The notes under the pieces were generated by a model, which worked only from the letters and a program-made list of their open reading frames with translations, did not search any database and was not told the DNA's origin. From Thermodesulfovibrionia bacterium (GTDB lineage: Bacteria > Nitrospirota > Thermodesulfovibrionia > UBA6902): a stretch of 46,452 nucleotides of DNA. The stretch's first letter is position 1; each line of letters begins with the position of its first letter. A program made the position numbers and the translations under genes. Below, in pieces: positions 7,918 to 37,410 of the stretch. The DNA lies in the NCBI GenBank assembly GCA_038918635.1, contig JBCKZY010000004.1:1-46452 (forward strand), given 5' to 3'.

Positions 7918-8958
7918 TCAGTTAGTCTTAAACCAGATATTACATGCCCCTTCTGATGACACCATGCATGGACCTTTGGGTTTTTGTGGACTGCACACCT
8001 TTTTAAAGAGTTTGCATTCAGAGGGGTACGCCTTGCCGAGTACTATATCACCGCATATACATCCCGGGACCTTCTCCTCTTTCACATCTTCAAGCTGGAA
8101 GGCCTTTTTCGCGTCCATACCTGAGAACTCGTCCTTCAATTCAAGCCCTGAACCGGGCACATGCCCAATCCCCCTCCAGTTGACGTCCGAGACCTCAAAA
8201 AACTTGTATATTATTTTTTGAGCCTGTCTGTTGCCTTCCGGCCGGACAACGCTTCTGTAAACATTTCCGGTGCGGGCCTTCCCGTCTTTGAGCTGATTCA
8301 GTATCTCCAGAATTCCCAAAAGAAGATTGTCAGCTTCAAAACCGGCAACGACCGTGGGAATGCCGTATTTTTCAGGGAATATGTCCCATGCGTTTGAGCC
8401 GACGATTGCCGATACATGTCCCGGTGCTATGAAGCCGTCAATGCCTATCTCTTTATCATCAACAAGCAACTCCATTATCCTTGGCGTAAGTCTGTGAGAA
8501 CTGAGTATAAAGAGGTTTTCGGGGATTCCTGTCTCTAATATTGCGGCGGCAGGAGCGGTTGTGGTCTCAAAACCGATTGAGAAGAATACAATCTTTTTTC
8601 CGGGGTTTGATTCTGCGATTCTCACCGCCTCAAACGGTGAGGAGATCATCCTGTAGTTTTTACCATCAGATCTTACAGAGCCGTGCTTTGTAGGCACCCT
8701 GAGCATGTCGCCGTAAGTTAACAGTATTACATCATCTTGTTTTGACAGGTTAATCGCGTTGATAATGTCGCTTTCGGGGCAGACACAGACCGGACAGCCA
8801 GGGCCGGGGATTATCTCAAGGTTCCCGGGCATCAGGCTCCTCATCCCTGAAAAAGCTATGGTGTGCTCATGAGATCCGCAGACGTTCATGATACGAACCT
8901 TACGGTTTGAAGGAACCAACTTTTGAATGAGCGTTACTAGTTCTTTAATTTTTTCCAT
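7918..8958 (-). CDS. hypD: Hydrogenase maturation protein HypD
   Basis: CGSHEH, GPGCPVC, GFETT, PGHVS and the C-terminal Cys cluster (CICG..C.LF..C.P..P.GPCMVSSEGAC). Confidence 0.97.
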   Translation of the reverse strand: MEKIKELVTLIQKLVPSNRKVRIMNVCGSHEHTIAFSGMRSLMPGNLEIIPGPGCPVCVCPESDIINAINLSKQDDVILLTYGDMLRVPTKHGSVRSDGKNYRMISSPFEAVRIAESNPGKKIVFFSIGFETTTAPAAAILETGIPENLFILSSHRLTPRIMELLVDDKEIGIDGFIAPGHVSAIVGSNAWDIFPEKYGIPTVVAGFEADNLLLGILEILNQLKDGKARTGNVYRSVVRPEGNRQAQKIIYKFFEVSDVNWRGIGHVPGSGLELKDEFSGMDAKKAFQLEDVKEEKVPGCICGDIVLGKAYPSECKLFKKVCSPQKPKGPCMVSSEGACNIWFKTN

Positions 8959-8970
8959 TATTTGTGAAAC

Positions 8971-9026
8971 AAGTTACTAAGTTACTAAGTCATTGAGTTA
9001 CTGAGTTGCTAAGTTGTTGAGCTGCT
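8971..9026. repeat. Tandem octamer array (AAGTTACT consensus, 7 units) at the 3' end of the four-helix-bundle gene
   Basis: aagttact aagttact aagtcatt gagttact gagttgct aagttgtt gagctgct. Confidence 0.85.
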
Positions 9027-9389
9027 CTTTTTGAGAGAGGCAATATAGGAATTCAGAATCTTCAAAAGTTCATATGCATCTTTCTTATAATTATTACAAA
9101 TATTTTCATCTATATACTCTTCATCAAAACACTCATTGAAATCATCTATTAATTCAAATAAAGAACCTCTCGATTGTCTGCAATATTGAATATTCTCTTT
9201 ATAATGAAAACGACCATATCCTTCTGCTATATTGTTTGTGAGAGAAAGCTTTGCCCTTCTCATTTGATCTTTTAATCTGAATTTTTCAATTTCCGGCAGT
9301 TGTTTTATCAGTTTACTGATTTTTCTGCTAAATTCTCTTGCTTTTTGATAAACGAATAATTCTTCAACACTTCGTATCTTTTTGTCCAT
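9009..9389 (-). CDS. Four helix bundle protein (23S rRNA intervening-sequence protein / bAvd-like family)
   Basis: L.VYQKA, LPEIEKFRLKDQMRRA..S...NIAEGYGR, YCRQSRGSL.E. Confidence 0.92.
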   Translation of the reverse strand: MDKKIRSVEELFVYQKAREFSRKISKLIKQLPEIEKFRLKDQMRRAKLSLTNNIAEGYGRFHYKENIQYCRQSRGSLFELIDDFNECFDEEYIDENICNNYKKDAYELLKILNSYIASLKKSSSTT

Positions 9390-9400
9390 CTGTTTTCTTT

Positions 9401-9465
9401 AATAACTTAATGACTTAATAACTTTAATAACTTAGTAACTTGATAATTTAATAACTCAGTGACTG
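9401..9465. repeat. Tandem octamer array (AATAACTT consensus, 8 units), inverted relative to the 8971-9026 array
   Basis: aataactt aatgactt aataactt (t) aataactt agtaactt gataattt aataactc agtgactg. Confidence 0.85.
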
Positions 9466-9482
9466 TGTAAGTATATTATGCT

Positions 9483-10475
9483 TCAGCAAATTCTCGGCAG
9501 CATCTCCTCATCAAGCATGTCCAGGGGCCTTAAACCGCCTATCAATGTCTTTAACCTGACACCACTGAACTCTGATGAAATATCGCCTATCAGTGCGGTC
9601 TTCTCCCCTAAAGGATGCTCACGCAGGATTCCCATAACCTCTTCAGCGGCCTCCCCTGAGGTTATGATGAGCGCTTTGCCTTCGTTTGCAATGTAGAGAG
9701 GGTCATAACCTAGCATGTCGGAGATAAAACGGACATCCTCCCTGACCGGAATGCTATTTTCACGTATCTCAACTCCCAGACCGGAACTCTCCGCGAGTTC
9801 GGCAAGAACAGTTGCTACCCCCCCGCGGGTGGGGTCCCTCATCCATCTGACGCCTTTAATATCAAACAGGGGCATAAGCAGTTCTTTAAGTGACGCGCAA
9901 TCACTCTTCACTTCGGCATCAATCTCAAAACCGTCTCTTGACAGGGCTATCGCGGTGCCGTGATCTCCGATATCACCCGTAACGATCACTCTATCACCAG
10001 CGGAGACATCTTTTATGAGGAGCGGCCTTACGACTCTGCCGACGCCTGTTGTATTGATATATATACCGTCGCATTTACCCCTCTCGACAACTTTTGTATC
10101 GCCTGCCACTATTCTGACGGAAGCCTCACGCGATGCTTTTCCCATGCTTGATATGATCTCCTCAAGGCTTTCAATTGAAAAACCCTCTTCGATTACAAGT
10201 CCGACGGTGAGGTATTCAGGAACAGCTCCGCTGACTGCAAGGTCGTTTATTGTGCCGCAGACAGAGAGCTTGCCTATATCACCGCCCGGGAAGAAGAGGG
10301 GACGTATTACATAGGAGTCAGTGGTTATGGCTGTTTCAGCGCCATTGAGTTTAATGTATGATGCGTCTTCAAGGGGGCTTAATTCATCTGAGACAAGGTG
10401 TTTCAGGATGATGTCCCTGATTAGTTCCCTTGTGAGACTTCCTCCGCTTCCGTGTCCGATGCCTATTGTTTTCAT
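9483..10475 (-). CDS. hypE: Carbamoyl dehydratase HypE
   Basis: HGSGG, TTDSYV, GGDIGKLSVCGTINDLAVSGA, GDTKVV, MRDPTRGG and the diagnostic C-terminal PRIC. Confidence 0.97.
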   Translation of the reverse strand: MKTIGIGHGSGGSLTRELIRDIILKHLVSDELSPLEDASYIKLNGAETAITTDSYVIRPLFFPGGDIGKLSVCGTINDLAVSGAVPEYLTVGLVIEEGFSIESLEEIISSMGKASREASVRIVAGDTKVVERGKCDGIYINTTGVGRVVRPLLIKDVSAGDRVIVTGDIGDHGTAIALSRDGFEIDAEVKSDCASLKELLMPLFDIKGVRWMRDPTRGGVATVLAELAESSGLGVEIRENSIPVREDVRFISDMLGYDPLYIANEGKALIITSGEAAEEVMGILREHPLGEKTALIGDISSEFSGVRLKTLIGGLRPLDMLDEEMLPRIC

Positions 10476-10485
10476 ATAAGTTTTT

Positions 10486-10866
10486 TAGCCACGAATTTAC
10501 ACGAATAATATATATATTTCCAGTGCTGTCCAAAATAATATAAGTTTCTAAAACTGATTCTTACAACAAAAGGCATTTGGATGTGTTAATCCACAATATC
10601 AAAATGAGGTTACCCCCTATGTCTCGTTTGATGTTCATTATGCTGTCCAGGATAATCATATCACATGATGAATAAACAATTATCTTAAAATCCCCCTTTC
10701 TCCCCCTCGGAACGAGCCTACTCGGCTTTTTCTCCGCACTCAGGCGGATTTGCCGAGGCGAAAAAGGGGGGCGAGCCGGAATGACAGAATAAAGGAAATA
10801 TCAGTAAGAATCTCCAGATATTAATACAAATTACTTTTCGTGAATATTCGTGCACATTCGTGGCTA
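10486..10866. mobile_element. 381-bp non-coding insert bracketed by 22-bp inverted repeats, with internal nested hairpins
   Basis: TAGCCACGAATTTACACGAATA (10486-10507) versus the reverse complement of 10845-10866, TAGCCACGAATGTGCACGAATA (2 mismatches). GC-rich hairpin block at ~10690-10787. Confidence 0.55.
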
Positions 10867-10879
10867 ATTACCGAGTTCA

Positions 10880-11590
10880 TTAGTGGCTGATTAAATTCTT
10901 TTTTAATAACTCAAACCACTCTTCCATCCCTTCACCTTTTGTTGCCGATGTTACCAATATTTCAAGGTTAGGATTTAGCGCCAGCGCGTCTTTCTTTATC
11001 TTCTCAATATCGAAATCGAAATATTGAAGAAGGTCGGATTTAGATATGATGAGCACCTGTGAAGTTATGATAGCCTTAGGATATTTAACAGGCTTATCAT
11101 GCCCTTCGGGAACGGATATCAGGACTACTCTGATATGCTCGCCAAGGTCAAAAAATGAAGGACAGACAAGATTGCCGACATTTTCTATAAAGAGGATGTC
11201 GAGTTTTTTGCCGTTCAGCTGTTGTTCCAGTTTATGAAATCCCTTGTGTATAAGTCTGGACTCAAGATGACATGCTCCCCCGGTAGTTAACTGAACAGCA
11301 GGCGCCCCTTTCTCCCTGATCCTTTCAGCGTCAAGCTCAGTCTCTATATCACCTTCCAGCACGCCGATTGATATATCATTTCCTAAAATCTCGATGGTCT
11401 TCTCCAGCAGAGTTGTTTTGCCGGAGCCGGGTGAGCTTATAAGGTTTATCGCGAGAATACCCTTTTCATTGAAGTGCTTTCTGTTGCTGGCGGCTTCTTC
11501 TTTATTTGCTTTAAGCAGACTCTGATTAACTTCAACAGTCTTCTTCTCTCTAATGGTCTTTGTATCGTCACATCCGCAAGAGTCGCACAT
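10880..11590 (-). CDS. hypB: Hydrogenase nickel incorporation GTPase HypB
   Basis: N-terminal MCDSCGC (start at 11590, GGAG upstream; the ORF track extends to 11608). Also SSPGSGKTTLLE, TGGACH, ENVGNLVCP and SKSD. Confidence 0.97.
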   Translation of the reverse strand: MCDSCGCDDTKTIREKKTVEVNQSLLKANKEEAASNRKHFNEKGILAINLISSPGSGKTTLLEKTIEILGNDISIGVLEGDIETELDAERIREKGAPAVQLTTGGACHLESRLIHKGFHKLEQQLNGKKLDILFIENVGNLVCPSFFDLGEHIRVVLISVPEGHDKPVKYPKAIITSQVLIISKSDLLQYFDFDIEKIKKDALALNPNLEILVTSATKGEGMEEWFELLKKNLISH

Positions 11591-11606
11591 CCCTGAGCTC
11601 CATATC

Positions 11607-11699
11607 AAAAATTAAAAATAAAAGATCAAAGATAAGGTGTTTATTTTTATATAAAACCTTCCATGATTTTGATTTTTAATCTTTGATGTTTTATATTTT
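11607..11699. repeat. Short A-rich / T-rich degenerate arrays in inverted arrangement with no gene between them
   Basis: AAAATTAAAAATAAAAGATCAAAGA ... ATTTTGATTTTTAATCTTTGATGTTTT between hypA and hypB. Confidence 0.45.
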
Positions 11700-11701
11700 C
11701 T

Positions 11702-12058
11702 TTATACTTCCAATTCCATCTTTGCTATATCCACCTCTTCTCCGGAGAGGAGGTTCAGGTTAAACGATTTACAGTCAGGACATGGAGGGAAAAAAATGTC
11801 ATCTGTTTCAAATTTCTTTTTGCAATCATTACATTCGTATATTAATGGGATTTCCTCTATTAACAGTTCTGCTGAAGAGAGAAGCGGATACTCAAGCTTA
11901 ACCGCGTCAAACGCGAATTTCATGGAGTCTATGACGATACCTGATTTCCTGCCGATCTTCAGGTTAAGAGAAGTAACCTTCAAGGCATTATTCTCACCGG
12001 CAATCCGGGTTGCTTCGTTGACCATGCCCATGACTATTGAGAATTCATGCACGCTCAT
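11702..12058 (-). CDS. hypA: Hydrogenase nickel metallochaperone HypA
   Basis: N-terminal HEFSI, two CxxC zinc motifs (CNDC, CPDC) and C-terminal SGEE...MELE. Confidence 0.95.
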   Translation of the reverse strand: MSVHEFSIVMGMVNEATRIAGENNALKVTSLNLKIGRKSGIVIDSMKFAFDAVKLEYPLLSSAELLIEEIPLIYECNDCKKKFETDDIFFPPCPDCKSFNLNLLSGEEVDIAKMELEV

Positions 12059-12290
12059 CCTCCTCGTCCATGAGCCTCAGCAGTTCATCAAACCCTTCCC
12101 ATATTTCATCGGCCCTTATCTTGTCCAGCTTTTCTATGGCAAATCCTACATGAACGACCACGTAATCACCTATCCTCACATCACTTTCCTGTAGGAGTTG
12201 CAGACCTATATTTCTGGTAACACCCCTTGCTTCAGCCACACCTGATGGGTAGTTGATTTCAACTAACTGCATTGGAACGCCTACGCACAT
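12045..12290 (-). CDS. hypC: Hydrogenase assembly chaperone HypC
   Basis: MCVGVP N-terminus and GDYVVVHVGFAI. Overlaps the hypA start. Confidence 0.97.
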   Translation of the reverse strand: MCVGVPMQLVEINYPSGVAEARGVTRNIGLQLLQESDVRIGDYVVVHVGFAIEKLDKIRADEIWEGFDELLRLMDEEDERA

Positions 12291-12350
12291 ATATTATCTC
12301 CGAATATTTATTAATACTTATTAGACTTTTCCGGCTTATGTATGGGGAAC

Positions 12351-12427
12351 CCTCCCCTAACCCCTCCCTTGTCGAAGCGACCCTTTGCGGAGACCCGCTT
12401 CGGGAGGGGAGGGGTTAGGGGAGGGTG
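12351..12427. repeat. GC-rich palindromic repeat (CCCTCCCC..GGGGAGGG type) with an inner CGAAGCG..CGCTTCG insert; left flank of the DUF559 cassette
   Basis: 12366-12409 is the reverse complement of 13039-13082 (44 bp, 1 mismatch). Confidence 0.8.
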
Positions 12428-12447
12428 ACTCAAACAATTTCCTCGTA

Positions 12448-13007
12448 TCACCTTTCTAATACGCCTTCCATATTAGTCAGCACCTCATTATTCCAGAACC
12501 TTAAGACCTTAACCCGCATATTGCATGAAGGATTCGGGTTCAGAGTGAATTTCGCACAGCAGGTTGCGTGATCGTCCGCGGAAGCATAGCCATAGCTATG
12601 GTTCAAGAGGGATCGTGCAAGATGCACAGCGAGATTTGCTTTGAAACCGGATAGGCACAAAGTGTAATCTCCCCTGCAACGTGCTTAGCCTGCATTTTGT
12701 CTTATTATCATGAAAATAACAGTTAGTCTATCTGCCGCCTTTATGCAATATGCGGGTTAAAGCCCTCCGAAGTGAGCCATGCGTCTCTTTCTTTGTCTTT
12801 AGTATTGTATGCGTGCTGCCCGCCGTCCGCCTCTATCACCAATGATTTCTCAAGACATATAAAATCAACAACATAATTGCCAATTGGCTGCTGCCTCCTG
12901 AATTTGAGTCCCTCCATCTGTTTTGCCCTTAAATGTCTCCATATCAGTTTTTCAGCATCTGTTTGACTTTTTCTAAGGGCCTTGGCTGTATTGACCAGCT
13001 TTTTCAT
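12448..13007 (-). pseudogene. DUF559 (Vsr-like / PD-(D/E)xK) endonuclease, interrupted by a 244-bp MITE
   Basis: AKALRKSQTDAEKLIW, KFRRQQPIGNYVVDF, EADGGQH and ERDAWL. Removing 12513-12760 restores EGF-KVLRFWNNEVLTNMEGVLE. A further likely frameshift lies near 12450. Confidence 0.9.
12513..12756. mobile_element. Non-autonomous MITE, 244 bp, 19-bp TIRs, TTAA target-site duplication (possibly IS1380-family derived)
   Basis: CCCGCATATTGCATGAAGG versus right end reverse-complemented CCCGCATATTGCATAAAGG. TTAA at 12509-12512 and 12757-12760. The empty site rebuilds the DUF559 frame. Confidence 0.88.
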
Positions 13008-13020
13008 TAATTCTGATACA

Positions 13021-13142
13021 CCCCCACCCTAACCCTCCCCCCTCCCGAAGCGGGTCTCCGCGAAGGGTCGCTTCGACAAGGGGGAGGGAACTTTTATATC
13101 ACTACCCTCGCACCTCAAAGGGGAGGGAACTTTTATATCACT
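13021..13142. repeat. Right palindromic flank of the DUF559 cassette plus a 23-bp direct repeat
   Basis: Inverted copy of the 12351-12427 unit. GGGGAGGGAACTTTTATATCACT occurs at 13081-13103 and 13120-13142. Confidence 0.8.
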
Positions 13143-13719
13143 TCAAGGTTCCACACAAAACCCGGATGAGCCATTAATATGAAAGTGGGGTTTCACCCCA
13201 CACCCCGAAAATATTTTTTTGTTCATTATTGCGTGCCATGAACCGTATGGTACACGGCGTGCCCAATAACAAACAATGGGGATATCGGAAAATGAAACCC
13301 TGAAGCCCCGTTTCGCGTGCGGGGCTGCAGGGTCGTAACAGCCTGAATTTTACAACCGTATTACTACAGGGCCTCTTCGCCCTTTTCTCCTGTCCTGATT
13401 CGTAACTTGTTGTATTTAAATGTAACTTATTACAATCTAACCATATTATTTTGTAGTTATTCTACATTATTGTAGCTTCATCTGTGTTTATTGATTATTA
13501 TACCGGGTTATTATTCAGGCAGGAATGGGGGGTAATTATATTAACCCCAGAATACAAAGAGAGCACGTTTGCAGGTATAAATATGAAAGGTTATATTATG
13601 CGGTTTTCTGAATATACTTTATAAGCCGCATGCACCCTCCCCCTTCAATGCAATTAGCTGGTATAATTATCCATTCGTCAAAACTCCTTAATTGAGCAGT
13701 TTATAAAAGGCAAACGCGT

Positions 13720-14799
13720 ATGTTAATTCACAGGTCGGTATTTAAGGAACTCTTAATAAACAGTCTGGTGATCATCCTGTCTATGTCGGTGCTGCTGTTT
13801 ATGGAAAAGTTTGTCCGGCTCACGAGGGTGTTGATGGGTAAGGGCTCTGAGTTTACCGATGTCATGAAGGTGTTCTTTTATCTTCAGCCATCACTTTTGC
13901 TGTTGTCGATACCTATGGCGGTGCTTGTAGCCATATTCCTGACATACGGCAGGATGGCCGCTGACAGCGAACTGGTTATACTGAAAGGGAGCGGAATGAG
14001 CTTCCCCGTCATATCAAAGTCGGCTATCGCTATCTCGGTTTACGGTTTTTTCATCCTGCTCTTCATTAGCCTTTATCTTAATCCACTAAGCATAAGCCAT
14101 TATAAACAGACACTGCATGAATCAATTACAAAGAAGGCATCCATGATCCTTGAGGAAGAGACTTTCCTTGATGTGTTTAAGAATACCGTTATATATGTCA
14201 AGGAAATCTCGTCAAAGAACAGCTTCAGGGGTATATTTATTTACAGGGAAAAAGACTCACGCGTAAAAGATCCACTGGTGATCATCGCTGAGGATGGAGA
14301 AATTACATCAAACTATAAAGAAGGATTGATAAAGCTCCTGCTGCGTAATGGAGTAATCCACACAGCAGGGCAAAATGGCTCATCAGAGATATCATTTTCA
14401 GAGTATGATTTTATTCTCACGTCAGGGATAGAGGTATCGCTGAATACAAAACTTCATGAGATACCTTTTATGGACCTCTGGAGAGACCGCAAGGAAAAGA
14501 TTTTATGGCAAATAGAGCTTAACAAACGGTTTGCAATGCCATTTGCATGTCTTATCTTCGGCATTTTAGGCCCCGCAATCTCAAGCAGAATGGGCAGGAT
14601 AGGACGCCTGGGCGGATTCTCATTTAGCCTGTCTCTGATCATTATTTACTACGGGATGCTCATCATGGGAGAGGGTCTTGCCAAAGCAGAGAAAGTATCA
14701 CCACATATCGGGGTATGGATGCCAAACCTGTTTTTTGGAACTATAGCAATTATTATCTTCTACATAGCTTCTAAAGATGCGCCGGCAAAAAAACTTTAA
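13720..14799 (+). CDS. lptF: LPS export ABC transporter permease LptF
   Basis: YjgP/YjgQ layout (3 TM, periplasmic beta-jellyroll, 3 TM), with GRMAADSELVILKGSG, ELNKRFAMPF and GVWMPN. Confidence 0.88.
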   Translation: MLIHRSVFKELLINSLVIILSMSVLLFMEKFVRLTRVLMGKGSEFTDVMKVFFYLQPSLLLLSIPMAVLVAIFLTYGRMAADSELVILKGSGMSFPVISKSAIAISVYGFFILLFISLYLNPLSISHYKQTLHESITKKASMILEEETFLDVFKNTVIYVKEISSKNSFRGIFIYREKDSRVKDPLVIIAEDGEITSNYKEGLIKLLLRNGVIHTAGQNGSSEISFSEYDFILTSGIEVSLNTKLHEIPFMDLWRDRKEKILWQIELNKRFAMPFACLIFGILGPAISSRMGRIGRLGGFSFSLSLIIIYYGMLIMGEGLAKAEKVSPHIGVWMPNLFFGTIAIIIFYIASKDAPAKKL

Positions 14800-14814
14800 G
14801 GACCTGAAATAACA

Positions 14815-15885
14815 ATGAAGATTCTGTTGAGATATTTTTTTAAAGAGTTTTTCAAGCTCTTCATGATAGTTTTACTCAGCATGACCGCCATGATGGTCAT
14901 TGCAGAGTTTTTCGACAAAATTGATATGTTCTATTCAAAAAAAGCGCCTGCATCCATTATGCTTCAGTATTTTGTGCTCCTCTCCCCCAAATACATACTT
15001 TACTCGGCCCCAATAGCCTCATTACTGGCCATACTGGTCACAATAGGAAGGGCCTCAAAATGGAAAGAGACAGTGGCCATAAAGGCATCAGGAGGAAGCC
15101 TGAAGAGAATTTTTTCAGCATTTCTCATACTCGGGGTTCTTATAAGCTTTATTGCCCTGCTTTTCGGTGAAATCGTTGTTCCCGCAGCAGTAAGAAAAGC
15201 CATATGGGTAAAGGATACAAAGATACTGAAACAGTCACGGAAAATATCCTTCAGAAGAAAAGCCCTGTGGCTCAAAGGAATCGACGGCAGCCTTATACGT
15301 ATCAGGAGCTTTGTGGAGAACGAGAACAAGGTGATTGGGGTTGGCATATATGTCTTCAACCCGTCTTTCGATATTGAGAAGAGGATTGAGGCGGAAGAGG
15401 CAGAATGGGTAGACGGCATATGGAGACTCAAGAATGTGACGGTATTTGATTTCAGTAACGATACCATATCAAAACACGATTCACTAACTTCACATGCCAT
15501 TGAAGAACCTGAGATATTCAGGGAAGAGATGAAAAAACCTGAAGAGATGAACTTCATGGAACTTCACAGATATTACAGCAGGCTTGAGAAGGCAGGTTTC
15601 AGGAACGTAAAGTATGTAATGCGACTATATGAAAAACTCTCCTACCCAACGGTCAATTTTGTTATGATCCTGTTCGGGCTTACTCTCTCCCTTAATGCAA
15701 GATGGGGAGGAGGTATCAGGTCTGCCGGGCTCGGGATCGCCATAAGCGTAATATACTGGCTTATTTATTCAATGAGCATATCCCTTGGCAATACAGGCAT
15801 GGTCCCCCCGTGGTTTGCACCATGGATCAGCCCTTTAATCTTCGGAATTGCGGGAAGTGTTATGTATATAAGGATAAAAGAGTGA
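14815..15885 (+). CDS. lptG: LPS export ABC transporter permease LptG
   Basis: Second YjgP/YjgQ paralogue directly after lptF, with ETVAIKASGGS, A..A.WVDG.W, KLSYP and APWISP. Confidence 0.88.
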   Translation: MKILLRYFFKEFFKLFMIVLLSMTAMMVIAEFFDKIDMFYSKKAPASIMLQYFVLLSPKYILYSAPIASLLAILVTIGRASKWKETVAIKASGGSLKRIFSAFLILGVLISFIALLFGEIVVPAAVRKAIWVKDTKILKQSRKISFRRKALWLKGIDGSLIRIRSFVENENKVIGVGIYVFNPSFDIEKRIEAEEAEWVDGIWRLKNVTVFDFSNDTISKHDSLTSHAIEEPEIFREEMKKPEEMNFMELHRYYSRLEKAGFRNVKYVMRLYEKLSYPTVNFVMILFGLTLSLNARWGGGIRSAGLGIAISVIYWLIYSMSISLGNTGMVPPWFAPWISPLIFGIAGSVMYIRIKE

Positions 15886-15956
15886 TACATAGAGGGTTCA
15901 AGGATTCGAGGGTTCCAGGGTTCTTCGCCTCAGCGAATCCCGATACATCGGGAAAT

Positions 15957-16166
15957 GGTTCAAGTGTTTGTACTCTTTAGATTCAACTAAAAACTTAAGC
16001 ATCCTCTCCACTATTCTTATATCTTTTTGAAGAACTTTCAACGTCTTGCTTTCATTATGAGTACACAGGTCACTGCTTTGGAGAATCCCTTTGCTCTTTT
16101 ACAAATCTCTAGACATAACTGGTAAGTCTTTTGCCAAACTTTTAAGTCCTCGCAATTCTTAAGCCT
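15957..16166 (-). pseudogene. Degenerate, internally deleted four helix bundle gene flanked by inverted octamer arrays
   Basis: With frameshifts the minus strand reads LKNCEDLK-VWQKTYQLCLEICKRAKGFSK ... LKVLQKDIRIVERMLKFLVESKEYKHLN. These match the two ends of this family, with the middle missing. GGGTTCRA/GGATTCRA arrays at 15892-15924 and inverse arrays at 16169-16196. Confidence 0.65.
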
Positions 16167-16272
16167 TTCACTAGAACCCCAGACCCCTTGAATCCTAATG
16201 CTCATTACAACTTCTATGACAGATAACGATAAACGCTGAATCTGATTTTAATCACCTATTGGACTTCAGAGA

Positions 16273-16932
16273 TTAGCCTATCTCTTCCATTATCCGAACC
16301 CCTGAACTGGTACCTATACGTGTTGCGCCTGCTTTGACAAAGGCTTTAACATCTTTAAGACTCTTTATGCCGCCAGACGCCTTTATACCCACCGCGCCCT
16401 TTGTTGCAGATCTTATAAGTTCAACGTCTTTCACAACCGCCCCTGAAGGAGCAAAACCGGTTGATGTCTTTACAAATTCACCTCCCGCATTCATTACAGC
16501 TAAAGAAGCCCTTACCTTTTCATCATCTTTAAGATAAGCGGTCTCGATAATTATCTTGTGCGTTACCCCCGGGGTGGCCGCTATAACAAGTGCTATCTCT
16601 TTTTCCACGGCTTCCCATTTATTTGCCCTTGCCAATCCTGGATTAATGACGATGTCAAGTTCATCAGCGCCATTGAGAACAGACTCAATCGCCTCGTAAA
16701 CCTTGACCTTTGTAAGTGACGTTCCAAGTGGAAAACCTATTACCGTTGCGACCTTAACGCCGGTTTTCGATAGCACCTCCGCTGCTTTTTCAACAAAAGA
16801 AGGATTAATGCAGACAGAGAAAAATCCATATTTTTTCGCCTCCTCACATAGCATTACTATTTCTTCTTCGGTAGCATCCGCCCTGAGAAGCGTATGGTCT
16901 ATCAGTCCGGCAATTTCGAGTCTGTTCTTCAT
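16273..16932 (-). CDS. deoC: Deoxyribose-phosphate aldolase
   Basis: IDHTLL, VCINP, TVIGFPLG, GADELDIV, KIIIET, FVKTSTGF, IKASGGI and RIGTSSG. Confidence 0.97.
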   Translation of the reverse strand: MKNRLEIAGLIDHTLLRADATEEEIVMLCEEAKKYGFFSVCINPSFVEKAAEVLSKTGVKVATVIGFPLGTSLTKVKVYEAIESVLNGADELDIVINPGLARANKWEAVEKEIALVIAATPGVTHKIIIETAYLKDDEKVRASLAVMNAGGEFVKTSTGFAPSGAVVKDVELIRSATKGAVGIKASGGIKSLKDVKAFVKAGATRIGTSSGVRIMEEIG

Positions 16933-16951
16933 ATTTTCAGTTGTCGTGTTG

Positions 16952-17085
16952 CCTGTTCCTTATCACCTATTACCAATAACCTATGACCTGTTTTATATTA
17001 CCTGTTTTTGTTACCTGTTCCTTATCACCCATAACCTATTACCTCTGACCTGTTTTTTATCCCCCATTACCCATAACCAATAACC
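16952..17085. repeat. Heptamer tandem arrays (CTATTAC/CCATAAC/CAATAAC) in two ~43-bp blocks plus a partial third
   Basis: CCTGTTCCTTATCACCTATTACCAATAACCTATGACCTGTTTT (16952-16994) and its near copy at 17014-17056. The third block overlaps the aminotransferase C-terminus. Confidence 0.75.
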
Positions 17086-17944
17086 TGGTTTTATTTATAT
17101 ATTCCCTGACCTTCTTTTTATAAGCCTTATGAATAACACCTGTCAACTTATCTGCTTCTGTTTTTATCTTAACATCATCCACTTCTGAAACCGGCATGAC
17201 CTCCATAGTTGTATTGGATATAAAGACCTCATCCGCATGATAAATATCATCCCTTTTGAAACGTCCCTGCCTGACCTTAATCCCCAGGTCAGATGCGATC
17301 TCTATAATTATCCTCCTGGTTATTCCATCCAGGATCCCGACGCCAACCGAAGGGGTACAGAGCACCTTATCCTTTAAAAAGAAGATATTGCTGATAGTGC
17401 CCTCAGCAACATACCCACTGTAATTCAGCATAACCGCCTCATAAGCCCCTCTCTCTATCGCCTCTCTCTTTGCAAGTATATTGTTTAGAAAATTAAGGGA
17501 CTTTATCCGGGGATCAAGAGCCCCCTTGAAGTTCCGTCTCGTATTGACGATTGCAATCTTTACCCCCTTTTTGTAATAACTTTCGGGATACTTCCTGAAA
17601 GGGTTTGAGATAATCACAAACGTGGGTCTTGAGCATAATGAAGGGTCCAGTCCAAGCGGGCCCGCCCCCCTTGATACGCTTATCCTAACATACGCCTCTT
17701 TCTGCCGGTTAGCCCTTATCGTCCGGTATATCGCATTATTGATTTCATTAGGGGTCTTGCGAATTTCAAGTCCTATCAATGACGCTGAGCGAAAAAGCCT
17801 CTTAATGTGCTCATCAGCCATAAATACCACACCGTCGTAAACCCTAAGTGTCTCGTAAATCCCGTCTCCATACAGGAAACCGTGGTCAAAGACCGAAATG
17901 AGCGCCCTGTCCTTTGTGACAAGCCTGCTGTTAAGATAAATCAT
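17057..17944 (-). CDS. Class IV PLP aminotransferase (branched-chain aminotransferase IlvE / D-amino-acid aminotransferase / ADC lyase family)
   Basis: DHGFLYGDGIYETLR, HIKRL, KSLNFLNNIL (PLP lysine), EGTISNIF, GILDGITR and DEVFISNT. Confidence 0.93.
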   Translation of the reverse strand: MIYLNSRLVTKDRALISVFDHGFLYGDGIYETLRVYDGVVFMADEHIKRLFRSASLIGLEIRKTPNEINNAIYRTIRANRQKEAYVRISVSRGAGPLGLDPSLCSRPTFVIISNPFRKYPESYYKKGVKIAIVNTRRNFKGALDPRIKSLNFLNNILAKREAIERGAYEAVMLNYSGYVAEGTISNIFFLKDKVLCTPSVGVGILDGITRRIIIEIASDLGIKVRQGRFKRDDIYHADEVFISNTTMEVMPVSEVDDVKIKTEADKLTGVIHKAYKKKVREYINKTRLLVMGNGG

Positions 17945-37193: not shown

Positions 37194-37366
37194 GGTCCGA
37201 GGGGTCTATGGGTCTAAGGAATTAATATTATTAAATAATCCTTGAATCCTCGAATCTCTGCCTCTACCTTAGGTTTACGACTCATTGAGCAGACAGGTGC
37301 CGACAAGTTTGATCATTTATTTTTTTTTGCTTATACCACTTGGACCCTTGAATCCTCGAATCCTTG
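37194..37366. repeat. Inverted octamer arrays (GGGTCYRA / TYGAATCC type) with no cargo gene
   Basis: GGTCCGA GGGGTCTA TGGGTCTA (37194-37217) faces CCTTGAAT CCTCGAAT (37240-37255). A further CTTGGAC CCTTGAAT CCTCGAAT lies at ~37339-37361. Confidence 0.6.
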
Positions 37367-37410
37367 TCGGAATCGACTCGTACCGAGAACCCTCTTCAAA
37401 TGAACTTATA

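Follow-up and report, generated by a model that had tools for sequence, protein, structure and literature searches.

A 126-aa gene of the PF05635 family lies between hypE and hypD in a Nitrospirota genome, enclosed by two inverted arrays of 8-nt tandem units. This cassette belongs to a genome-wide, cross-phylum family of array-armed elements that occurs as gene-bearing, internally deleted, and gene-less copies, and gene and arms are inherited as one unit. The window, meaning the whole stretch of DNA analyzed, is 46,452 nucleotides long (positions 1 to 46,452 of contig JBCKZY010000004.1, Thermodesulfovibrionia bacterium, GenBank assembly GCA_038918635.1). With moderate confidence, we read the cassette as a promoter-less palindromic insert of the type known from 23S rRNA intervening sequences (IVSs) that is or was mobile, with arms that would pair in the operon transcript and be cut by RNase III and units that would be read by a sequence-specific factor. 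An earlier note on this DNA had proposed a transposase-less mobile or regulatory unit whose protein binds its own arrays; taken overall, that proposal is partly supported.

Cassette structure

The cassette fills exactly the interval from the hypE stop codon to the hypD start codon, in sense orientation (Table 1). The earlier note had described the 126-aa gene between hypE and hypD, with eight units upstream and seven inverted units downstream that encode its C terminus, and this is correct to the base. Read in gene sense, the 5' arm consists of CAGTCACT GAGTTATT AAATTATC AAGTTACT AAGTTATT AAAGTTATT AAGTCATT AAGTTATT (period 8, 7.1 copies by Tandem Repeats Finder), and the 3' arm consists of AGCAGCTC AACAACTT AGCAACTC AGTAACTC AATGACTT AGTAACTT AGTAACTT, which codes for the final five codons and stop of the gene (S-S-S-T-T-stop). 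The arms are inverted copies of each other (73% complementarity across 45 nt; best stretch, 95% across 19 nt), and the open reading frame (ORF) is enclosed, as in a 23S rRNA IVS, by terminal inverted repeats capable of forming a long stem. The calculated arm-arm RNA duplex in sense orientation reached −37.2 kcal/mol, against −14.0 ± 3.1 kcal/mol for 200 shuffles (z = −7.6). The left border, from the hypE stop codon to the 5' arm, is probably element DNA, because the deletion remnant of a relative (G030) retains it.

Neither a promoter signal above chance nor a terminator was found for the cassette. No Rfam family covers the arms, and there was no rRNA family match within positions 8500 to 17500; the cassette sits at hypE/hypD and not inside a 23S rRNA helix (9, 25, or 45). 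PADLOC gave no defense-system match.

Encoded protein

The cassette protein matched PF05635 (23S_rRNA_IVP; E value, 1.9e-28; 99.2 bits; cut-off, 33.8) and TIGR02436 (94.6 bits; cut-off, 24). A G/Q-x2-R-x3-S-x3-N-x2-E motif has been reported for the PF05635 family (PMC3936711); in the cassette protein the motif Q-x2-R-x3-S-x3-NIAEG is intact, and Q42, R45, S49, N53, I54, A55, E56, and G57 are invariant across six paralogues and in 39 relatives. In the AlphaFold monomer model (pLDDT, 94.1), helices span residues 12 to 30, 39 to 58, 63 to 89, and 95 to 125. The best fold match was XCC0516 (2GSC; TM, 0.83/0.92; rmsd, 1.7), followed by BT_0352 (2RLD; TM, 0.76/0.87), both of them pentamers, where the cassette protein was modeled as a monomer; Avd, a protein of diversity-generating retroelements (DGRs), was more distant (4DWL and 8UB7; TM, 0.71 to 0.74). 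These profile and fold matches bear out the earlier assignment of the gene to the four-helix-bundle family of 23S IVSs and Avd. The family has been described as homologous to Avd (PMC10053308), and its genes have been noted within cas loci (PMC3936711). The NCBIfam equivalog model for DGR Avd (NF033474) gave only 22.3 bits (cut-off, 80). The cassette ORF is under purifying selection (pN, 0.14 to 0.26; pS, 0.57 to 0.97). A scan of viral contigs found no relative, and exact-sequence look-ups with the cassette protein and HypD returned no further contig and no empty allele of the same species.

Cassettes and arrays in the genome

The assembly (1.93 Mb, 174 contigs) is a 68% complete metagenome-assembled genome (MAG) and holds six PF05635 genes with mutual identities of 31 to 34%. 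All six are bracketed by inverted 7- to 8-nt arrays, each gene having its own unit, and the host genes beside them are functionally unrelated (hyp, his, tRNA, nusG-like). At least four decayed genes also lie between matching arms (C4:15892-16196, C155, C22, and C16). The first of these, in the window, is 77% identical over 104 nt to the intact copy on C107, and one of its arms holds a small nested insert (TTCGCCTCAGCGAATCCCGA...). The intact, decayed, and gene-less series that the earlier note had seen stands, and 15892-16196 is indeed a deleted gene between arms. As for its gene-less members, those at 11602-11699 and 37194-37366 are hairpins, but the third, at 16952-17085, consists of one-sided tandem arms and is not inverted.

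Three of the six cassettes show further peculiarities. The one at C143:243-1077, with TAGCTNA-type arms, lies between two tRNA genes and thus within a stable-RNA transcription unit, like an rRNA IVS. In the gene of the hisA/hisF cassette, a 46-nt stretch close to the 5' end is duplicated in tandem (C102:4700-4790; ATAGAACTCATAAAGATTTGGATGTCTGGAATAAGTCT twice), which shifts the likely start codon. Upstream of the C107 gene, whole arms are tandemly repeated: three consecutive 5' arms (C107:2150-2390) each begin with ACAGGGTTC and end with GAGTGAAAAGC, as the window has three to four consecutive 3'-type arms at 16952-17092.

Strict arrays of period 7, 8, or 9 numbered 137 in the genome and 1 in a locally shuffled genome, which excludes a chance origin; 96 of the 137 lie outside long ORFs. 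The arrays sort into unit families. The GGGTTCAA family comprises at least 35 arms, about 12 of which make up gene-less elements of 150 to 250 bp that resemble miniature inverted-repeat transposable elements (MITEs) and share conserved inner borders (AGTG...CACT). The earlier note had held that arrays occurring independently of such genes would refute it. They do occur in large excess (137 strict arrays to 6 genes), but this seems to be no contradiction: the gene-less arrays share their unit families with gene-bearing and decayed copies and therefore look like non-autonomous derivatives, similar to MITEs or to REPINs, the hairpins formed by repetitive extragenic palindromic (REP) sequences. 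Gene-bearing and gene-less copies would then resemble an autonomous element and its derivatives.

The spacers that hold arrays in this genome are co-directional in 55 cases, convergent in 21, and divergent in 2. The arms are polar in base composition, G-rich and C-poor on the 5' side and C-rich and G-poor on the 3' side. With arrays of equal G and C counts omitted, this holds almost without exception, for 31 of 32 paired arrays here and 98 of 103 arms in relatives (loci L031 to L110). Because an inverted repeat is identical on both strands, this polarity belongs to the element itself and does not stem from gene orientation. ACAG stands at the outer edge of the 5' arm in 46 of 129 arrays and at the inner edge in 22, across unrelated unit families, where the control CTGT gives 11 and 14; it may represent a terminal signal common to these families or reflect a target-site preference. 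ACAG often follows an A-run (for example, C50:7773, C107:3700, C1:67608, C14:7897, and C49:11212), and 3' arms end in the mirror sequence CTGT(TTT).

Composite arrays were also seen, made up of abutting 5'-type and 3'-type arms from two different families (C70:6729-6819, C44:5864-5926, and C27:15986-16055); they suggest nesting of elements or recombination between them. An element of about 30 nt, itself a hairpin (TTCGCCTCAGCGAATCC-CGA...TCGGGA type), lies inside or against GGGTTCAA arms at several loci (window positions 15924-15953 and 37367-37395; C29:8730-8765, C9:32335-32375, and C58:7835-7870). It looks like a micro-insertion that targets arrays, similar to the very small nested repeats of cyanobacteria.

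Relatives in other phyla

Relatives of the window protein (43 to 88% identical) came from 80 assemblies of Nitrospirota, Bacteroidota, Ignavibacteria, Planctomycetota, Cloacimonadota, and other phyla, including isolate genomes (Fulvivirga, Algoriphagus, and Splendidivirga). At the 76 loci usable for a flank test, complementarity of the flanks lay above the 95th percentile of controls (145 ordinary genes of the window's own genome) in 88%. Pairing upstream and downstream flanks across loci was unsuitable as a control because many loci share a unit family. Arm complementarity is specific to position: in 88% of 33 cassettes, the arms were more complementary than they were after the order of their units had been shuffled (Wilcoxon p = 3e-6). 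Both neighbors are on the strand of the gene in 69 of 79 cassettes, and both are on the opposite strand in 1; the median gaps to them are 59 and 58 nt, so that the arms fill the spacers.

The distribution of unit class and period (7, 8, or 9) over the protein tree is clustered, with 17 changes against 33 for shuffled labels and none of 200 shuffles as low; the covariation of protein clade and repeat unit, which the earlier note had named as a test, is thus present. The 8-mer unit of the window is common to its nearest clade (L031 to L034; support, 99), between whose genes synonymous sites are saturated. Likewise, orthologous hisA/hisF cassettes retain a GTAAYG-type heptamer core in their arms at near saturation of synonymous sites.

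Junction alleles

The hypE/hypD junction was compared in 24 relatives. Empty alleles, which the earlier note had suggested looking for, were found: the junction is empty or nearly so in four relatives (0, 13, 20, and 31 nt), with overlapping stop and start codons in one. At least 10 of the 24 hold gene-less array hairpins, which represent at least six unit families, and 1 has a gene-less hairpin of the AAGTTATT family. Two relatives from another taxonomic family hold deletion remnants of the window cassette, including its borders. Remnant and window cassette share about 88% identity, whereas the flanking hypE and hypD are 65% and 72% identical at the DNA level with no rise near the junction, which implies that the occupant is younger than the divergence of the hosts or was refreshed by conversion. 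A relative of the same genus carries a different, 404-nt occupant with arms of 9-nt units; at both junctions examined its occupants differ from those here, although the flanking proteins are 91 to 96% identical. An 88%-identical, frameshifted copy of the gene, with the same AAGTTATT arm units, is located between NTPase-like and deacetylase-like genes in another Nitrospirales genome.

At hisA/hisF, where this genome has the C102 cassette, 17 relatives show a clean abutting stop and start. The same cassette lineage is present in six genomes, including this one (one copy internally deleted and one truncated). Two relatives carry a second PF05635 lineage with different, GCAATTA-type arms, one has arms of that type around a non-coding interior, and three have solo arrays. 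In a genome of the same genus, HisA and HisF are 96% identical to those here and the junction holds a solo array and no gene.

Terminal inverted repeats, presence/absence polymorphism, and multiple dispersed copies, features by which insertion sequences (ISs) and MITEs are recognized, are all seen. There is no transposase inside the cassette, as the earlier note had said, and none is linked to the arrays. Site-specific homing was considered for the repeated occupancy of the same junctions and is not needed, since at a density of 137 strict arrays per 1.9 Mb independent hits at tolerated stop/start junctions are to be expected.

Other features of the window

The remaining array-armed features of the window are listed with the cassette in Table 1. 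The arms of the gene-less element at hypB/hypE (junction, 10476-10879) are AGCCACGAAT-GTGCACGAAT-ATTCACGAA and its inverse ...TTCGTGTAAATTCGTGGCT, around an interior of 330 nt with a nested G/C-rich palindrome; with it, all internal junctions of the hyp operon that were examined (hypA/hypB, hypB/hypE, and hypE/hypD) hold an array-armed palindromic element. A long G/C-rich palindrome at 12342-12433 (GGGGAACCCTCCCCTAACCCCTCCC ... GGGAGGGGAGGGGTTAGGGGAGGG) belongs to a different, REP-like class of repeats that is also present at the hypE/hypD junction of three relatives (L008, L021, and L028); its weak matches to miRNA-precursor models are those of a generic long hairpin.

Table 1. Coordinates of the hypE/hypD cassette, its host genes, and related elements in the window
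Feature	Position	Strand	Remarks
hypD, downstream host gene	7918-8958	minus, as cassette gene	PF01924, E value 5e-133
Right border, 3' arm to hypD ATG	8959-8970	minus	GTTTCACAAATA (gene sense); kept in G030 and G036 remnants
3' arm, downstream in gene sense	8971-9026	minus	7 AGTAACTT-type units, reverse complement of 5' arm units
Four-helix-bundle gene, 126 aa	9009-9389	minus	PF05635 / TIGR02436 profile matches
5' arm, upstream in gene sense	9397-9465	minus	8 AAGTTATT-type units, one of 9 nt
Left border, hypE stop codon to 5' arm	9466-9482	minus	AGCATAATATACTTACA (gene sense); probably element DNA; kept in G030 remnant
hypE, upstream host gene	9483-10475	minus, as cassette gene	AIRS/AIRS_C domains
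Gene-less element, hypB/hypE junction	10490-10880		Inverted arms, ~10-nt units (CACGAATNNN)
Gene-less array hairpin, hypA/hypB junction	11602-11699		Inverted AAAAATC/AAAGATC heptamers
Decayed cassette	15892-16196	minus	Internally deleted four-helix-bundle gene; GGGTTCAA-type arms (15892-15923, ~16168-16196)
Tandem copies (3-4) of one arm type	16952-17092		CACCTAT/TACCAAT/AACCTAT..., each ending ACCTGTTTT; single strand, no inverted partner
Gene-less hairpin	37194-37264		GGGTCTA/GGATTCAA type; further arm of same family at 37340-37366

Interpretation

A PF05635 gene between two inverted arms of tandem 8-nt units has the build of an ORF-bearing 23S rRNA IVS. On the reading that we prefer, the cassette would be, or would once have been, mobile DNA, with insertions at those stop/start junctions that tolerate them. 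It would have no promoter of its own and be transcribed along with the host operon, its arms would pair as an imperfect stem of 45 to 60 bp, and RNase III would cleave that stem as it does in rRNA IVSs. A sequence-specific factor would read the units, for which the most economical candidate is the encoded, putatively pentameric protein, which would act on its own arms and perhaps on gene-less copies as well. The parts of this reading differ in strength. That the cassette is or was mobile is well supported by the comparison of loci. The existence of a sequence-specific reader is probable: each protein clade keeps its unit sequence and period and not complementarity alone, where a stem that needed only to pair could drift. 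That the cassette's own protein is this reader is plausible, with a single indirect line of support, the survival of the unit motif between genes whose synonymous sites are saturated. The sense orientation (69 cassettes to 1), the lack of a terminator and of a promoter signal above chance, and the near absence of arrays from divergent spacers point to dependence on the host transcript. By analogy with rRNA IVSs, we infer that cassettes ride on host transcripts as promoter-less inserts and that the paired arms probably serve as an RNase III substrate; the genome has an RNase III gene (rnc). The earlier note knew of no described mechanism, but a precedent exists in the 23S IVS of Coxiella, in which three to four tandem heptamers, variable in number among strains, stand ahead of the S23p ORF, with RNase III cleavage at the first of them (PMC4990558). 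It is the only experimental anchor, and RNase III processing of the cassette is therefore argued by analogy.

Several observations weigh against this reading. Read-through transcription and RNase III cleavage of the cassette are themselves assumptions taken over from the IVSs. Mismatches between arms show no excess of G.U wobbles on the sense strand (51 versus 43), and in the window cassette the antisense duplex (−47.6 kcal/mol) is stronger than the sense one, so that sense RNA is not singled out over DNA or antisense RNA; T/C differences between the window arms, considered as a mark of selection on sense RNA, were dropped for want of the G.U excess. The cassettes on C143 and C2, two of the six, gave weak arm duplexes in the windows used. 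A partner arm was not detectable for 103 of the 137 strict arrays, and the GTTCACG, ACAGGATTA 9-mer, GCGCTAT, and AAAAATC families have no intact cognate gene in this 68% complete assembly. No target-site duplication, catalytic protein, or mobilization intermediate was identified; for the duplication, the relatives are too distant to show the site of this insertion in exact empty form. Finally, the hisA/hisF cassettes are as diverged as their flanks, which fits long vertical residence as well as mobility.

This last point leads to an alternative that we consider unlikely yet worth weighing, namely, that the cassette is an ancient insertion that was domesticated as an essentially immobile operon spacer. 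The stem would then regulate hypE and hypD through processing, stability, or translational uncoupling, with the protein as a host RNA-binding regulator kept by selection, as the purifying selection on the ORF would suggest. Strict sense orientation and the snug fit between stop and start codons agree with such a role, as does the hisA/hisF lineage, which is common to two families, has diverged in step with the flanking genes, and has kept its arms throughout. Yet the same type of cassette sits at unrelated loci of related genomes beside genes of unrelated function, the congener has other occupants at both junctions despite flanking proteins 91 to 96% identical, and each of the 17 clean hisA/hisF alleles would need a precise loss. 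Domestication is possible for old lineages such as that at hisA/hisF; it does not cover relocation, turnover within the genus, or the abundance of copies in these families that have decayed or lack the gene. Less probable still is that the arrays are a repeat class of their own, spread by slippage or by another enzyme, such as a Y1 transposase of the REP-associated tyrosine transposase (RAYT) type, on which four-helix-bundle genes land or hitch-hike, the link being one of position. The arrays do outnumber the genes by more than 20 to 1 and are mostly solo, composite arrays of two families abut, and the genome has three Y1_Tnp genes. The Y1 genes, however, are flanked by a different inverted repeat of their own (GGGGTCAGG...TTGACAT) and not by arrays, and a RAYT was rejected as the mobilizer for this reason. 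Unit type and period follow the protein clade, gene and arms move together to new loci, matched arms are found at all six paralogues here and in 88% of relatives, and the stop codon and C terminus of the ORF are built from an arm. The Y1 genes (IS200/RAYT-like, about 290 to 320 aa; C49:9280-10210 and C23:17700-18570), with their inverted repeat GGGGTCAGGCTTGACTATTGACAT / ATGTCAATAGTCAAGCCTGACCCC, make up a REPtron-like system apart from the cassettes.

We give little credence to a role as retroelement accessory, in which the protein would partner a reverse transcriptase as Avd does and the arrays would be products or templates of reverse transcription. The fold does resemble Avd (TM, 0.71 to 0.74 to 4DWL and 8UB7), with a weak match to the DGR Avd model, but that match stays at 22 bits against the cut-off of 80, the assembly (68% complete) contains no RVT_1 match, and neither a reverse transcriptase gene nor a pair of template and variable repeats lies near any of the six copies. 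Chance similarity or a low-complexity assembly artifact can practically be dismissed: the MAG is fragmented (174 contigs) and repeats can misassemble, yet arrays exceed the shuffled genome by 137 to 1, the duplex has a z-score of −7.6, the architecture recurs in 80 independent assemblies, isolates included, and the cassette lies within a 46-kb contig between intact flanking genes.

Beyond the preferred reading of the cassette as an IVS-type insert, a bolder proposal is possible, which we put forward tentatively: PF05635 pentamers might read the 7- to 9-nt tandem units sequence-specifically, each protein lineage with its inverted arrays being a transposase-less self-propagating mobile system comparable to REPIN-RAYT, with the gene-less hairpins and solo arrays of operon junctions as its non-autonomous offspring. 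If pentamers do read the units, S23p/IVS proteins would gain a function and heptamers of the type of short tandemly repeated repetitive (STRR) sequences would gain an origin across bacteria. The cassettes link the S23p/IVS ORFs, a large orphan family related to Avd, to the unexplained short tandem heptamers and octamers in the intergenic DNA of many phyla. The window is an unusually clean case, with intact, decayed, and gene-less copies within a few kilobases and relatives that show empty, swapped, and remnant alleles. Stems able to form double-stranded RNA, placed in ordinary operons such as hyp and his, may alter operon expression and confuse gene calling.

Comparison with known systems

The literature searched contains no account of PF05635 genes flanked by such inverted arrays except in rRNA, and the general array-armed architecture seems to be undescribed. 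The closest system is the 23S rRNA IVS (Coxiella burnetii S23p and Leptospira), in which a PF05635 ORF likewise occupies the loop of a long terminal-inverted-repeat stem, in sense inside a host transcript, and which has long been suspected of being a mobile element whose ORF serves mobility. In the Coxiella IVS, moreover, tandem heptamers (GACAGAT, three to four) immediately precede the ORF, and the RNase III cut falls at the first of these (PMC4990558). Unlike these IVSs, the cassette is hosted by a protein-coding operon at hypE/hypD and not by a 23S rRNA helix, both of its arms consist wholly of 8-nt tandem units, and it has many gene-less relatives in the same genome; its ORF is under purifying selection, whereas that of Coxiella is decaying.

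REPIN-RAYT systems (REPtrons) share with the cassettes a single gene between inverted copies of a short repeat that is also scattered as intergenic gene-less hairpins, a repeat family that follows the protein clade, and long vertical persistence. However, a RAYT is a catalytic HUH/Y1 transposase and no catalytic site is known for the four-helix-bundle protein, the cassette repeats are tandem 7- to 9-nt arrays in place of single palindromes, and the Y1 genes of this genome carry another repeat. Avd of DGRs is of the same fold family and forms a pentamer that contacts RNA in the DGR ribonucleoprotein; the cassette, by contrast, has no reverse transcriptase, template, or variable repeat, its protein scores below the cut-off of the Avd equivalog, and its gene is flanked by inverted arrays.

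As with MITEs derived from ISs, the non-autonomous copies, internally deleted or gene-less, have the same terminal inverted arms as gene-bearing copies, which are rarer. The cassette differs from MITE systems in that it has neither a transposase nor a demonstrable target-site duplication and its arms are tandem arrays. The STRR heptamers of cyanobacteria and the TAACTGA repeats of Beggiatoaceae are, like the arrays here, numerous intergenic tandem arrays of about 7 nt near start codons with a patchy distribution across phyla (PMC4679880); the paper on TAACTGA repeats nowhere mentions four-helix-bundle genes (PMC4679880). They have been described as direct repeats with no protein partner or inverted pairing, whereas the cassettes join such units, as inverted arms, to a PF05635 gene.

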